The notes beneath the pieces are model-generated. The model was not told the DNA's origin. It did not search any database and was given only the letters and a program-made list of their open reading frames with translations. Shown here piece after piece: positions 50,321 to 54,907 of a stretch of DNA of 64,000 bases. The position numbers were made by a program, and so were the translations under genes. Origin of the DNA: an uncultured Chitinophagaceae bacterium. GTDB taxonomy: Bacteria > Bacteroidota > Bacteroidia > Chitinophagales > Chitinophagaceae. Position 1 is the first letter of the stretch. Each line of letters begins with the position of its first letter. The DNA lies in the NCBI GenBank assembly GCA_937919945.1, contig CALESY010000119.1, forward strand, positions 25,768 through 89,767. Reading direction: 5' to 3'.

Positions 50321-51847
50321 ATGTCAAAAAAAGCAATGCTCATTATTATGGATGGCTGGGGGCACGGGCAGGTGCCTGCTGCCGATGCCATAGCCAATGC
50401 AAATGTTCCGTTCGTTAAGTCTTTATACAACCAATACCCCAATACCGAACTGATAACCTGCGGAGAGGCAGTAGGCCTGCCGGACGGGCAAATGGGCAAT
50501 AGCGAAGTCGGCCACCTGAACCTTGGTGCGGGGCGTATAGTGTATCAGGAGTTGCAACGCATCAATGTGGCTGTGCGAGATGGTGAACTTGCCAACAACC
50601 CTGTTTTCCTGAAAGCATTAAACAATGCAAGAGATAATAACAAAACCCTGCACCTGATAGGCCTTGTAAGTGATGGTGGGGTACACTCACATATCAACCA
50701 CCTGAAGGCGCTGTGCACATTAGCAAGCAAACACAATGTACCCCGTGTAGCCATTCATGCTTTTACAGACGGGCGCGATACAGACCCCAAAAGCGGCTAT
50801 ACTTATCTGCAAGATGTACAACAACACCTTGTAATATCAGGCGGCTTCATCGCCTCTGTAACAGGCAGGTATTATGCAATGGATAGAGATAAGCGATGGG
50901 AGCGGGTAAAGCTGGCTTATGATGCCCTTACAAAAGGCATCGGGGAAAAAACACAGGATGTATTCGCAAGCATACAGGCTAGCTACGATGCAGATATTAC
51001 AGATGAGTTCATCAAACCCATCATAGCAACTGATAAAGAAGGTAATCCGCTGGCTACAATACAGAATGGCGATGTGGTTATATGTTTTAACTTCCGTACA
51101 GACCGGTGCAGAGAAATAACACAAGTGCTGACACAAGAAGCTTTCCCTGAACAGGATATGCAACCACTTAACCTGCACTATGTCACCATGACGGAATATG
51201 ACAAGACTTACAAAAACGTAGATGTAATATTTTATAACGACAATCTTAACAATACGTTGGGCGAAGTATTGGCAGCGCATGGAAAAAAACAAATACGCAT
51301 TGCCGAAACAGAGAAGTACCCGCATGTTACTTTCTTTTTCAGCGGCGGCAGAGAAGCGCCCTTTGATGGTGAAAGCAGAATATTAAAACCATCCCCAAAA
51401 GACGTTCCTACTTACGACCTGAAACCTCAGATGAGTGCTATTGAACTGACTGACGCCATAGTGCCTGAAATAGAAAACCAAACTGCTGACTTTATTTGCC
51501 TGAACTTTGCTAATGCTGATATGGTTGGCCATACAGGTGTATGGGAAGCCGCCAAAAAAGCGGCAGAAACAGTTGATAGTTGTGTCAAGAGAATTGTACC
51601 TGCAGCCTTAGCAAATGATTATTGTGTATTCCTGACTGCAGACCACGGCAATAGTGACTTTATGATAAACGAGGATGGTAGTGTAAATACTGCACACACG
51701 CTAAACCCTGTTCCTTTGTTTGTAATTAGCAACGATTACAAAGGCCATGTACGCCCCGGTAAGCTGGGCGATATTGCACCTAGTATATTATACTACATGG
51801 GTATACCTATACCAAGCGAAATGACAGGCAATGTATTGATAGATTAA
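50321..51847 (+). CDS. gpmI: 2,3-bisphosphoglycerate-independent phosphoglycerate mutase
   Basis: IMDGWG, GNSEVGH, SDGGVHSH, AETEKYPHVT, ADMVGHTG, TADHGN; -7 box TAATTTTG at 50308-50315. Confidence 0.97.
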   Translation: MSKKAMLIIMDGWGHGQVPAADAIANANVPFVKSLYNQYPNTELITCGEAVGLPDGQMGNSEVGHLNLGAGRIVYQELQRINVAVRDGELANNPVFLKALNNARDNNKTLHLIGLVSDGGVHSHINHLKALCTLASKHNVPRVAIHAFTDGRDTDPKSGYTYLQDVQQHLVISGGFIASVTGRYYAMDRDKRWERVKLAYDALTKGIGEKTQDVFASIQASYDADITDEFIKPIIATDKEGNPLATIQNGDVVICFNFRTDRCREITQVLTQEAFPEQDMQPLNLHYVTMTEYDKTYKNVDVIFYNDNLNNTLGEVLAAHGKKQIRIAETEKYPHVTFFFSGGREAPFDGESRILKPSPKDVPTYDLKPQMSAIELTDAIVPEIENQTADFICLNFANADMVGHTGVWEAAKKAAETVDSCVKRIVPAALANDYCVFLTADHGNSDFMINEDGSVNTAHTLNPVPLFVISNDYKGHVRPGKLGDIAPSILYYMGIPIPSEMTGNVLID

Positions 51848-52953
51848 CGTAAATATTTGCCAACGCTATCTGCAACTATCTGTGCAACAACCTTTGTTCC
51901 TGCAGATGTATAGTGTGAATAGTCATAGTAATATTCGGAGTTCTTTGGCATAGCTACAGCAAGGTCTATGAGGTTGATGTTTTGACTGTTGCGGAGTTGC
52001 ATAAGTACATCGTTATATCTGTCAAGTATCATGCCTTGCAACTGGGCATTTCTACCATTAGCAATTTGTATGTTGGTAAAATCCAAACCTGTAGCCGGGT
52101 CGTTAAAAGATGCATAAAGTGATGGCTGTGTAAGGAATATGGGTGTTATATTGTTGGCTTTGCAAATGCTGTCTAACTGCAATATGCGTTTGCGATATGC
52201 ACCTGTATAACGGCTTTGTTCATTTGCTTGTAGCCGCATATCTGCATCGTTTATTATCAGTTTTGGTTGCTTTGCATAATCCACCACCCGGTGTGTCATG
52301 CCTTGCTTGCGCGCTATGCGGTAGCGGTAGATGTTTTCTGCCAAAGCACCTATCTCCGTTTTCTTCATCAGCGAACGTAAAAAACTTTTCAGGCTGTGTG
52401 TATCCCATTCATTACTATGGTAGGTATCAAAGCCACCCATCGCGCTTTCTTCCATATCGTTCACCCCAGTCAGGAATATGATATAGTTGGGTTTGAGAGA
52501 GAGTATGTGTTCTTGCAATAGCAGTAAATGCCCGAAGGTAGATGTGCCATCTAGGCCAGCATTGTTGAGCCACAGATTGGGTATGTGTTGTTGCAACTTG
52601 TTTTTGAGTAATTCAGGCCATGTAAGGCTATCGCTATTATAAGAGCATTCTGTAGTGCTGCCTCCTATAGTGATAATTTTTACATACCGTTCAGGTTGTT
52701 TAGGAAGCTCCCCACCACGCAAGCCAAGCGAGTTGCGGGTATAATGTATTACATGTTCCAGCTTAGGGCTTCCCGGGTTTTGATGTGATATCTGTTGGTT
52801 GGCAGGCAATACTATCTTACCATGTTTTACACGGAAAGGGAATGGCTGAAATATGCGCAGCAATACCTCTACCAACAAAAAAGCAACCAACACTCCGAAA
52901 AACAATGCTTTTACATTGCCCCAAAGTGTTGGTTGCTTCTTTACTTTTTCCAT
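51844..52953 (-). CDS. SGNH/GDSL hydrolase-family membrane-anchored protein
   Basis: N-terminal TM, GGSTT (Ser), GVND, DYSH. Confidence 0.85.
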   Translation of the reverse strand: MEKVKKQPTLWGNVKALFFGVLVAFLLVEVLLRIFQPFPFRVKHGKIVLPANQQISHQNPGSPKLEHVIHYTRNSLGLRGGELPKQPERYVKIITIGGSTTECSYNSDSLTWPELLKNKLQQHIPNLWLNNAGLDGTSTFGHLLLLQEHILSLKPNYIIFLTGVNDMEESAMGGFDTYHSNEWDTHSLKSFLRSLMKKTEIGALAENIYRYRIARKQGMTHRVVDYAKQPKLIINDADMRLQANEQSRYTGAYRKRILQLDSICKANNITPIFLTQPSLYASFNDPATGLDFTNIQIANGRNAQLQGMILDRYNDVLMQLRNSQNINLIDLAVAMPKNSEYYYDYSHYTSAGTKVVAQIVADSVGKYLR

Positions 52954-54596
52954 TACAGGAAGGTACTGTAGAAATACGGTGTCTTGGCTTCAAACTCGGC
53001 ACTGCAGGTATCTACCATTTTATATACCCGGGTTATGCCCAGTTTCTTGCGGTATTCGTACACTTCTTCTGCGGTACAGTCTTTTACAAACTCTGCTATC
53101 TGCTCATCACTAAAGCCCATTTGCTTGGCGTCGCGGAGCAGGTCGGCAGGCATATTGCCAAGGTGTTTTATTTCTTTTAGTTTGTTCTCCAGCGTTACAA
53201 TGTCTTGTATCTGGTAAAGAAACCAACGGTCTATATGCGTTATCTCACGAAGTGTTTTAATAGATATACCTGCTGCTATGGCCTCTTTTATTTTAAATAT
53301 CCTGTCCCATGTTGGGCGTTTGATAGATTCCAGCAATTCTTCAGGCTTCATACGTTGTGCGCTGATGAATGATAAGCCCGTTGCGTTGTTCTCCAAACTC
53401 TGGCAGGCTTTCTGCAAAGCCTCGGGGAATGTACGCCCTATTGCCATTACCTCACCTACCGATTTCATCTGGAAGCCCAGTGTATCGTCTGCCCCTTTAA
53501 ACTTATCAAAGTTCCAGCGTGGCATTTTTACAATCACATAGTCAAGCGCAGGCTCAAAGTATGCAGATGTGGTTTGTGTAATCTGGTTTTTCAACTCGTC
53601 GAGGTTGTAGCCTACCGCCAGCTTAGCAGCTATTTTGGCTATGGGATAGCCAGTAGCTTTTGAAGCCAACGCAGATGAACGGCTCACACGTGGGTTGATT
53701 TCTACTACGATGATTTCTTCCGTTTCAGGATTGAGGGCAAACTGTACGTTACAACCACCTGCGAAGTTGCCCAACGCACGCATCATACGAATAGCTGTGT
53801 TGCGCATCAGTTGGAAGGCAGTATCGCTCAGCGTCATAGCGGGAGCAACCGTAATACTATCGCCCGTATGAATGCCCATTGGGTCGAAGTTTTCGACCGT
53901 ACATATGATGGCTACATTATCGGCAGAGTCGCGGAGCAGTTCCAGCTCAAATTCTTTCCAGCCCATAACGGCTTTTTCTACAAGCACCTCATGTATAGGA
54001 GATGCCGTAAGGCCTTTTTCCAAAGCGGCGTCTAAATCTTCTTTATGAAACACAAGGCCGCCACCTGTACCCCCCAGTGTAAAAGACGGGCGTATAACCA
54101 ATGGTATGCCTATCTCTTGTGCAAACTCTTTACCTTCCAGCAGCGAGTTGGCTATTTTGGCCGGCGCAACGGGTATCCCCATTTCTATCATCCAGAGGCG
54201 GAATTTTTCACGGTCTTCCGCTTTGTCTATCGCTTTAGTATCAACACCTATCAGGCGCACGTTATACTCATTCCACAGCCCTATCTCTTCGGCTTCCATA
54301 GCCAGGTTCAGGGCTGTCTGCCCACCCATAGTAGGTAGTACAGCATCTATTTCATTTTCCTTCAGTATTTTCTCTATGCTTTCTACATTCAGCGGCAGCA
54401 GGTATACTTTGTCGGCAACAATGCTATCAGTCATTACCGTAGCGGGGTTGCTGTTGATGAGTACTACCTTAATACCTTCTTCGCGAAGGCTGCGTGCTGC
54501 TTGTGAACCGGAATAGTCGAATTCGCAGGCCTGACCTATTATAATAGGTCCTGAACCGATGATGAGAACCGTCTTTATGGAAGTATCTAATGGCAT
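52953..54596 (-). CDS. carB: Carbamoyl-phosphate synthase large subunit, N-terminal half only (547 aa)
   Basis: GSGPIIIGQACEFDYSG, INSNPAT, NPRVSRSSALASKATG, YKMVDTCSAEF; stops at TPYFYSTFL. Confidence 0.92.
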   Translation of the reverse strand: MPLDTSIKTVLIIGSGPIIIGQACEFDYSGSQAARSLREEGIKVVLINSNPATVMTDSIVADKVYLLPLNVESIEKILKENEIDAVLPTMGGQTALNLAMEAEEIGLWNEYNVRLIGVDTKAIDKAEDREKFRLWMIEMGIPVAPAKIANSLLEGKEFAQEIGIPLVIRPSFTLGGTGGGLVFHKEDLDAALEKGLTASPIHEVLVEKAVMGWKEFELELLRDSADNVAIICTVENFDPMGIHTGDSITVAPAMTLSDTAFQLMRNTAIRMMRALGNFAGGCNVQFALNPETEEIIVVEINPRVSRSSALASKATGYPIAKIAAKLAVGYNLDELKNQITQTTSAYFEPALDYVIVKMPRWNFDKFKGADDTLGFQMKSVGEVMAIGRTFPEALQKACQSLENNATGLSFISAQRMKPEELLESIKRPTWDRIFKIKEAIAAGISIKTLREITHIDRWFLYQIQDIVTLENKLKEIKHLGNMPADLLRDAKQMGFSDEQIAEFVKDCTAEEVYEYRKKLGITRVYKMVDTCSAEFEAKTPYFYSTFL

Positions 54597-54907
54597 CTTT
54601 TTAGTACTAAGTAGAAAGTATTACGTAATAAGTTGATGTACGATGAGCCGATACAAAAATCGGGCTCAACGCCCGAAGCGCAAAATTAATAAAAACCCGC
54701 CTAACATCCCCATGAGATGAATAAATTTATTATTCGAGTTGTGAAATAGTTGTTTGGGCTTACAGGGATACTTCAAAAAAGAGATTTACATAAGCAATGT
54801 TATTGCTTTGAATTATCCTTATTGTAAATGAATTTGAGAAAGCGATTTAGTGTATTTCATGGTTTTATTGGCACGAAAAATGCTTATTATATCTAAACTT
54901 ATAATCT

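Follow-up and report, generated by a model that had tools for sequence, protein, structure and literature searches.

The carB-N gene, located on the minus strand of the window analysed here (the whole 64,000-nucleotide stretch of DNA from an uncultured Chitinophagaceae bacterium), is very probably one of three unlinked genes which jointly encode the organism's only carbamoyl-phosphate synthetase (CPS). Judged from its sequence, this CPS is functional and, like that of Aquifex, made up of three genes, with separate CPS.A and CPS.B genes occurring in one genome and the break falling at the boundary of the internal duplication. In Aquifex aeolicus (GLN, CPS.A, CPS.B; Ahuja et al., 2001, in PMC6022934) the large subunit is likewise encoded by two unlinked genes and a break at the CPS.A/CPS.B boundary, a separate glutaminase gene and the conservation of both halves are common to the two systems. 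Nonetheless, the host here belongs to a mesophilic Bacteroidota lineage and its enzyme is known from sequence alone, fused and split forms of carB coexist inside one genus, and the break is tied to a nested cassette. A search of the open literature found no report of a split carB in Bacteroidota or Chitinophagaceae.

The N-terminal half and its partner genes

Two adjoining genes of the window are of concern at this locus:

52953..54596, minus strand: carB-N, an open reading frame (ORF) of 547 aa with an ATG start, encoding the CPS.A half of the CPS large subunit
51844..52953, minus strand: gene for a membrane-anchored SGNH/GDSL hydrolase of 369 aa (Pfam Lipase_GDSL_2, 2e-11)

The preliminary description had presented carB-N as a half-length CarB which stops at the CPS.A/CPS.B boundary, holds the carboxyphosphate and oligomerisation domains and is continued in no other frame, and these statements are confirmed. 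The ORF, ending in ...AEFEAKTPYFYSTFL* in the ORF reading of the window, covers about positions 1-542 of the 1058-position CarB profile (NCBIfam NF003671, 849 bits), scores 829 against TIGR01369, under the full-length cut-off of 1027, and aligns through residues 1-546 with E. coli CarB 1-547 (phmmer against the PDB). Pfam domains were detected at residues 7-125 (CPSase_L_D1), 128-334 (CPSase_L_D2) and 424-503 (CPSase_L_D3, the oligomerisation domain, 3e-28). The first (carboxyphosphate) ATP-grasp domain, recognised from D1 and D2, retains its nucleotide- and metal-binding residues in a residue comparison, with R129, R169, E215, H243, N283, Q285, E299, N301 and R303 (E. coli numbering) all kept. 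The second (carbamoyl-phosphate) ATP-grasp domain is absent from the polypeptide, which ends at profile position 542, and the split falls in the short linker that would otherwise lead from the oligomerisation domain into this second domain. Within the ORF list of the window no other reading frame continues carB at this locus, and a genome profile search detected no CPS.B-like sequence adjoining carB-N.

The second ATP-grasp domain is supplied in trans by carB-C, a 397-aa gene lying on another contig (G000:C163:25490-26680, 406-aa open frame). This gene matches profile positions 543-926 with 567 bits and aligns to E. coli CarB from residue 558 to about 937, plus a 23-residue tail. Proteins of 547 and 397 aa have also been called by gene callers in public sources. 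The CarB profile gave exactly two strong matches in the whole genome, the N half and the C half, and no full-length carB in this assembly, which is 99.99% complete. An intact, single-copy carA of 373 aa is located on contig C144 (PF00988, 164 bits), with the triad motifs GICLGHQ and YHPES visible in its ORF, so that carA, carB-N and carB-C occupy three different contigs of one genome. A search of the genome for the CPS.B half and carA had been proposed in the preliminary description, and with both found on separate contigs its suggestion that the enzyme is split, with the partner at a distance, is borne out. The other suggestion of a natural single-half CPS, of the Methanobrevibacter smithii type, is excluded by the partner gene, because this genome and every split genome examined contain two different halves. 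One ATCase-type gene is present in the genome, and carbamoyl phosphate is therefore needed.

Conservation of the halves and their proposed mode of action

That a frameshift, a chimeric contig or faulty binning has made carB-N look like a half gene, whether as a truncated pseudogene or through an assembly artefact, is exceedingly unlikely. Such an origin would fit the draft state of the genome, whose 178 contigs place the partner half apart from carB-N. However, the same stop and junction, with an identical ending (STFL* or STFI*), recur across the genus in 10 or more independent assemblies, closed chromosomes among them, and misassembly at 52953 is therefore excluded; binning error is ruled out by the same junction, and estimated contamination is just 0.06%. 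In the closed, one-contig genome of a close relative (G006), both halves lie on one chromosome, 108 kb apart. Both are under strong purifying selection with their catalytic residues kept, the dN/dS values being about 0.01-0.04 overall, as in fused relatives, in comparisons where dS exceeds 1. Median dN/dS is 0.035 (N half) and 0.023 (C half) among split genomes, and 0.035 (N part) and 0.026 (C part) among fused ones. A clean truncation, the third possibility raised initially, is excluded because there is neither a full-length copy nor decay in the genome, and the same observations dispose of the idea that this copy decays beside a full-length carB elsewhere. Half-length carB calls in Chitinophagaceae are real subunits, neither pseudogenes nor missing pathway steps.

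The proposed mode of action follows that of E. coli CarAB (PDB 1bxr, 1jdb, 1c30 and others), with which the split enzyme shares a CarA partner and the ATP-grasp residues checked (18/18 identical to E. coli CarB), and that of the three-subunit enzyme of A. aeolicus. By homology to these systems, CarA would release ammonia, CarB-N would phosphorylate bicarbonate and form carbamate, and the carbamate would be handed to CarB-C, where a second ATP would convert it to carbamoyl phosphate. E. coli CarB consists of one chain of 1073 aa, whereas here there are two chains, which may pair non-covalently through the pseudo-twofold interface known from the single-chain protein. The direct observations concern the genes present and the limits of their domains, the retained residues, purifying selection, synteny and distribution; complex formation and activity, as well as the regulation considered below, are inferred.

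Improbably, the two halves might instead each act alone as homodimers, as has been reported for isolated halves of CAD and of the Aquifex enzyme and for the M. smithii mini-CPS. A dimer of CarB-N with CarA could for example feed pyrimidine synthesis, while a CarB-C dimer co-expressed with an O-carbamoyltransferase could provide carbamoyl phosphate for carbamoylation. Consistent with this, carB-C stands directly behind a carbamoyltransferase/SxtJ-like gene pair here and in at least 8 relatives, the two halves are unlinked and differ in their upstream regions, and partial or full activity of single halves has been reported (PMC6022934). According to the same source, isolated Aquifex CPS halves are capable of both partial reactions, and a single-domain homodimer suffices for CPS in M. 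smithii (Popa et al., 2012, in PMC6022934). The 41-kDa mini-CPS of that species resembles the present case in that its synthetase unit is far shorter than a full-length CarB, but it pairs two copies of one synthetase domain as a homodimer, whereas here two different specialised halves are kept. Against independent action, carB-N and carB-C are always found together, each has retained the sequence specialised for its half, with a dN/dS equal to that of fused orthologues, and four split genomes (G004, G008, G016, G018) and a large split clade have lost the cassette which holds the carbamoyltransferase and kept both halves.

The inter-half cassette and the origin of the split

The junction between carB-N and the SGNH gene reads TTC CTG TAA TGG, where the stop codon ends on the A with which the SGNH ATG begins; owing to this overlap (TAATG), the two genes are probably co-transcribed. 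An unrelated SGNH gene starting on the stop codon had been described beforehand: the start is correct, but the gene is not unrelated, since it constitutes the left end of the cassette which separates the carB halves in relatives. This cassette comprises co-directional genes for the SGNH hydrolase, an O-carbamoyltransferase (CT) and an SxtJ-like membrane protein, and lies exactly between the carB halves in basal members of the split group. In the window genome the cassette is parted, with the SGNH gene beside carB-N and the carbamoyltransferase and SxtJ-like genes before carB-C, a later rearrangement having separated the carB halves. The SGNH gene directly follows carB-N in G001, G006, G009, G010, G012, G013, G019 and G021, and in two distant genera (G351, G334) it forms part of a nested cassette of compact build. 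Gene order is carBN-SGNH-...-CT-SxtJ-carBC-GNAT-TonB in G012, G021 and G013, carBN-SGNH-MFS-carBC in G019, and carB-(membrane protein)-(GNAT)-TonB in fused congeners; the SGNH gene and the orthologous carbamoyltransferase occur in none of the fused congeners compared.

The fused CarB of other Chitinophagales, a protein of about 950 aa (profile positions 1 to about 925), is an orthologue with 76-88% identity and the same domain set, and the downstream neighbours are the same in fused congeners. Its two parts are joined by a linker of 3 to 27 residues, whereas here the first part ends at a stop codon, further genes intervene and the second part has its own start. The presence of fused and split enzymes in one genus, with the cassette in place in some species, constitutes a natural experiment on the tolerance of a two-lobed, tunnel-containing enzyme to fission, for which closely matched sequence pairs are at hand for biochemistry.

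A survey of relatives, as recommended in the preliminary description, revealed that a split carB recurs in about 55 of the 126 genera sampled in the family. A search of a representative library with the N half is no gauge of split frequency, its top 150 matches being mostly full-length proteins which score on both halves. In the CarB tree, the split genomes of the genus group together in a single clade within the fused ones (95/93 and 99/96), and the C-part tree requires at least 13 changes between fused and split states, 7 of them forced by well-supported branches. An interpretation as many independent fissions was not adopted as stated, since the shared cassette, the junction architecture and the N-terminus of the C half speak otherwise; together these point to common ancestry or transfer of a split allele. 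A sliding-window scan of nucleotide identity gave no information on recombination around the junction, as synonymous sites are saturated.

The chances are slightly below even that the split allele, together with the cassette nested in it, had a single origin early in the family and was reversed on repeated occasions as the cassette was lost and the halves fused again in frame. The fused congeners would then be secondary and the window genome would keep the older state, with function unchanged. In the distant G351 and G334 the cassette occupies the same site with unchanged gene order and orientation, its right junction being built alike (SxtJ ...NPW*, a TAnnTTTG box, 6 nt, ATG), and the divergence of its proteins scales with that of CarB. 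Furthermore, most split C halves in the family start with M[SN]xT[LI]xxNES, which is not derivable from the ancestral ExGNxNES linker, while fused genes of the family have long variable linkers, often ending in ...TLSSNES or ...IVFNES. Each of the fused relatives closest to the split clade (L043, G007, G428) possesses a unique linker, and the intermediates G424, G475 and G233 have adjacent halves without the cassette. On the other hand, the nested split clade needs one change as against at least 3 re-fusions, G451, the sister of G351, is fused with a short linker of the ancestral type, an SGNH homologue occurs in only 8 of 131 genera, and many fused genera share a conserved linker of the KETKGD type.

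A more dynamic but unlikely history would have carB flip back and forth, fused in one state and split in the other, around a nested operon which consumes carbamoyl phosphate, with repeated cassette loss leading to re-fusion and leaving long scar linkers. The linker between the halves would be the only permissive site of carB, entered by a cassette that may have spread or persisted through co-expression with the half releasing carbamoyl phosphate. This labile product could possibly be handed directly to the carbamoyltransferase.

Upstream regions and control of the enzyme

Two candidate elements have been located in the leader of carB-N:

54681..54688, minus strand: candidate -7 promoter box TAATTTTG, matching TAnnTTTG upstream of carB-N, with a putative function
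54660..54676, minus strand: candidate leader terminator/attenuator hairpin from a terminator scan, TCGGGC-GTTGA-GCCCGA followed by TTTTTGT

TAnnTTTG is the consensus of the Bacteroidota -7 promoter box, and an equivalent box, TACTTTTG, is conserved upstream of carB in 17/17 same-genus genomes compared, whether split or fused. The hairpin precedes the ATG of carB-N by about 65 nt, and its stem is invariant and its loop variable across the genus. A regulon search of the genome detected only the copy at carB-N, and an Rfam search of the leader gave no real match. The C half begins 20 nt behind the SxtJ-like gene and possesses a putative, conserved -7-type promoter box of its own, 6 nt upstream of its ATG. 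TAACTTTG stands in front of carB-C, and TTAACTTTGC(A/C)GCTCATG is conserved there regardless of what stands further upstream. Since the halves have different upstream regions, their balanced expression is not assured.

The Aquifex CPS carries a regulatory subdomain in its C half, and the C half studied here has none. The allosteric domain of E. coli CarB (937-1073), which binds UMP, IMP and ornithine, is likewise absent, carB-C ending at about E. coli residue 937. With a CPS lacking the MGS-like allosteric domain, control is therefore probably transcriptional. Of the fused CarBs listed for the order, a single one has the domain, and with the order as a whole lacking it, the control of carbamoyl-phosphate supply becomes a question to which the conserved leader hairpin is one candidate answer. 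The total absence of the domain from the enzyme had not been remarked in the preliminary description. The sole MGS-domain match in the genome is a 524-aa frame on contig C131, which does not adjoin carB-C and, judged by its size, is taken to be a putative PurH.

Genomic integrity of the two carB halves

The preliminary description of this DNA had reported a half-length carB ending at the boundary of the two CPS halves, with an SGNH gene starting on its stop codon, and all of it was found in place.

Features of the split carB (window positions unless a locus is named)
52953-54596, minus strand: carB-N, the N half (CPS.A), ATG start, 547 aa, ending in AEFEAKTPYFYSTFL before the stop codon
51844-52953, minus strand: SGNH gene, the next ORF after carB-N, 369 aa, membrane-anchored GDSL/SGNH protein
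54651-54691, minus strand: carB-N leader, a -7-type box (TAATTTTG) followed directly by a hairpin
L003 1477-2667 (contig C163): carB-C, the genome's own C half (CPS.B)
L123 6691-6710 (contig C163): upstream element TTAACTTTGCAGCTC, immediately before the carB-C ATG

The pre-ATP-grasp, ATP-binding and oligomerisation domains of the CPS large chain are present in carB-N (Pfam), which matches positions 1-541 of the 1058 in NCBIfam NF003671 (849 bits) and aligns over residues 1-546 with E. coli CarB 1-547 (phmmer, PDB). Its junction with the SGNH gene reads TTC CTG TAA TGG, so that the last base of its stop codon is the first base of the SGNH ATG. The SGNH gene is itself convergent with the phosphoglycerate mutase gene gpmI (50321-51847, plus strand), their stop codons overlapping by 4 nt (51844-51847) without an intergenic terminator between them.

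The window's own genome is a 178-contig draft of 3.31 Mb (completeness 99.99%, contamination 0.06%). Searched with the CarB profile, it gave two strong matches, carB-N and an open frame of 406 aa on C163, which spans positions 543-926 of the profile (567 bits). The other matches were weak ATP-grasp relatives, and the full-length carB considered as a possibility in the preliminary description was not found, while the CPS.B half and carA, named there as genes to look for, were both detected. As called, carB-C encodes 397 aa from its ATG (MSSSIVFNESIPGEKKKVIVLGSGPNR...), and a public gene-call collection contains exactly this 397-aa C half and the 547-aa N half. The C half can be aligned with E. 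coli CarB from residue 558 to around 937, beyond which it has just a 23-residue tail. The sole MGS domain match in the genome is a 524-aa frame on another contig, presumably PurH from its size, which indicates that the enzyme has no allosteric domain. On a third contig, carA is an intact separate gene (373 aa) with visible glutaminase motifs GICLGHQ and YHPES.

When printed alignments were mapped to E. coli numbering, the N half was identical at R129, R169, E215, H243, N283, Q285, E299, N301 and R303, and the C half at R675, R715, E761, H788, N827, Q829, E841, N843 and R845, which we take, from E. coli structures, to be the ATP-grasp nucleotide- and metal-binding residues. Pairwise Nei-Gojobori estimates gave median dN/dS values of 0.035 (N half) and 0.023 (C half) for ten split genomes, and of 0.035 and 0.026 for the corresponding parts in seven fused congeners. 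Most dS values exceeded 1, which indicates that the split has been kept up over long divergence. One aspartate/ornithine transcarbamylase-type gene is present (OTCace_N match, G000:C89:3909-4340; frame of 310 aa, probably PyrB), and carbamoyl phosphate is therefore needed. This being the sole OTCace_N match in the genome, no ornithine-type transcarbamylase was detected, and arginine synthesis may thus be absent from the organism.

Distribution and gene order of split and fused carB

Of 22 genomes of the genus, 14 gave a separate match for each half and seven have one fused gene of ~950 aa, the remaining one (G017) being too fragmented to class. All N halves end in STFL, except for STFI in G019, and all C halves start with MSSS(A/S)I(V/L)FNES, except for MSAASSILHNES in G010. 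The halves lie 108 kb apart on the same chromosome in the single-contig genome G006 (CarB-N 98.7% identical) and 76-90 kb apart in G009 and G010. The misassembly at 52953 that had been envisaged, or any other artefact, is ruled out by the same half ends recurring genus-wide and by the presence of both halves on the G006 chromosome.

Gene order around carB, from tblastn of reference proteins against fetched loci
Fused congeners G020, G003 and G007: carB, (469-aa membrane protein), (GNAT), TonB receptor
Split G019: carB-N, SGNH, MFS (opposite strand), carB-C, GNAT, TonB; halves 2.6 kb apart
Split G012, G021 and G013: carB-N, SGNH, (four small genes), carbamoyltransferase (622 aa, Carbam_trans_N/C), SxtJ-like (153 aa), carB-C, GNAT, TonB
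Window's genome, contig C163: carbamoyltransferase (618 aa), 166-aa ORF, SxtJ-like, carB-C, membrane protein, GNAT

Within the split clade, G012 and G021 branch basally. In the window's genome, the SGNH gene remains directly after carB-N, apart from the cassette genes on C163. Within the genus, neither the SGNH gene nor the carbamoyltransferase orthologue (82-100% identity) was seen in any fused member; both are confined to split ones. The window's genome has a second carbamoyltransferase paralogue (G000:C168:42201-43916), 42% identical to the neighbour of carB-C, which was also seen in most split members, in a fused congener (G015) and in a fused genome of another genus (G024).

Survey of homologue lengths established that the half-length carB recurs. 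Across 401 genomes of the order, nearly all CarB matches are fused proteins of ~940-990 aa covering profile positions 1 to about 925, and nearly all end ~25 residues past the second ATP-grasp domain without an MGS-like allosteric domain, the absence of which is therefore order-wide; the sole exception is a 1062-aa full-type CarB in G234. Splits cluster in the family of the window, for which junctions were analysed in 131 genera, each represented by a single genome; 126 genera had a CarB match, and ~55 were assigned as split and ~66 as fused. Three split genera still have adjacent halves, with gaps of 62 nt in G475 and 30 nt in G233, and in G424 (L139, about 1350-1500) the halves share a frame, with one stop codon and a spacer of 150 nt between them (STLHG, stop, MLQNES), which looks like either nascent fission or an intermediate toward re-fusion. 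In one family of the order (f11), most sampled genomes yielded nothing for CarB at E<=1e-60 although they are highly complete, and their CPS may be divergent or missing.

Origin of the split

A careful IQ-TREE analysis, run on the N and C parts in concatenation, recovers the split members of the genus as one clade (95/93) nested among fused congeners, with a fused Flavipsychrobacter MAG as sister (99/96). Together with the absence of the cassette genes from every fused congener, this argues that the split may be derived within the genus, the allele having been acquired late by insertion or by homologous-recombination import with carB as homology arms. The split may alternatively be ancient and followed by repeated cassette loss and re-fusion. 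Pointing that way, G351 and G334, from distant genera, have a compact SGNH-carbamoyltransferase-SxtJ cassette between carB-N and carB-C, with all its genes in one direction. Its right-hand junction has the same make-up (SxtJ ending in NPW, a TAnnTTTG box, 6 nt, ATG), and the identities of its proteins (SGNH 42-45%, carbamoyltransferase 60-63%, SxtJ 35-37%) keep the ratio to CarB divergence that is seen among congeners. Most split C halves of the family start with M[SN]xT[LI]xxNES, an extension that cannot have come from STFExGNxNES, the ancestral linker of fused genes. The family's fused genes differ from those in other families by their long variable linkers, often ending in TLSSNES or IVFNES, and the linker is unique in each of the three fused lineages closest to the split clade; the long linkers look like re-fusion scars. 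Nonetheless, G451, the sister of G351, is fused with an ancestral-type short linker, which speaks against a single ancient split. Also against it, an SGNH homologue was seen in no more than 8 of the 131 genera, in five of which it stands free in a genome with fused carB, and the C-part tree (142 rows) requires at least 13 state changes. Evidence thus exists on both sides, and a nucleotide sliding-window recombination test was saturated; the functional reading is the same under either origin.

Proposed enzyme and upstream elements

The best-supported reading is a heteromeric CPS of CarA, CarB-N and CarB-C, whose assembly and activity we infer. The complex would work like the Aquifex aeolicus enzyme and E. 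coli CarAB, differing from the latter in having no MGS-type allosteric domain. That each half acts alone as a homodimer, which is known to be possible in vitro (PMC6022934), is unlikely here because the two genes always co-occur and the evolution of each half resembles that of the matching part in fused orthologues. CPS large subunits in split form are already known, and the present enzyme is a real, ordinary member with an evolutionary side story; no paper was found in the open literature on a clade-wide Chitinophagaceae carB split or on its nested carbamoyltransferase cassette.

Immediately ahead of the carB-C ATG, 20 nt reading (T)TAACTTTGC(A/C)GCTC are kept in all split genomes of the genus but G010 (TAATTTTGCAGCTC), irrespective of the gene further upstream. 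Before carB-C, TAACTTTG fits what we take to be the Bacteroidota -7 box, TAnnTTTG, and we infer a dedicated promoter and a near-leaderless mRNA. The carB-C element TTAACTTTGCAGCTC agrees with TTACTTTTGCACCTC, the promoter core of carB-N, in 12 of 15 positions, a likeness that could reflect a leaderless carB-C transcript and a promoter type common to both halves. The carB-N leader hairpin (TCGGGC-GTTGA-GCCCGA, followed by TTTTTGT) has a single copy in the genome and no Rfam match, and is absent from three other genera. Across the genus its stem is invariant and its loop variable, and the block TTACTTTTGCACCTCGGGCGTTGAGCCCGATTTTTGTATC upstream of carB is conserved in each of the 17 congeneric genomes compared, whether their carB is split or fused. 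The hairpin is a candidate carB attenuator, serving an enzyme without an allosteric domain. In two split congeners (G004 and G008; loci L038 and L024), the SGNH gene is gone and a classical terminator hairpin (AAAAGCCCCGATGTTCGGGGCTTTTGT) lies directly after carB-N.
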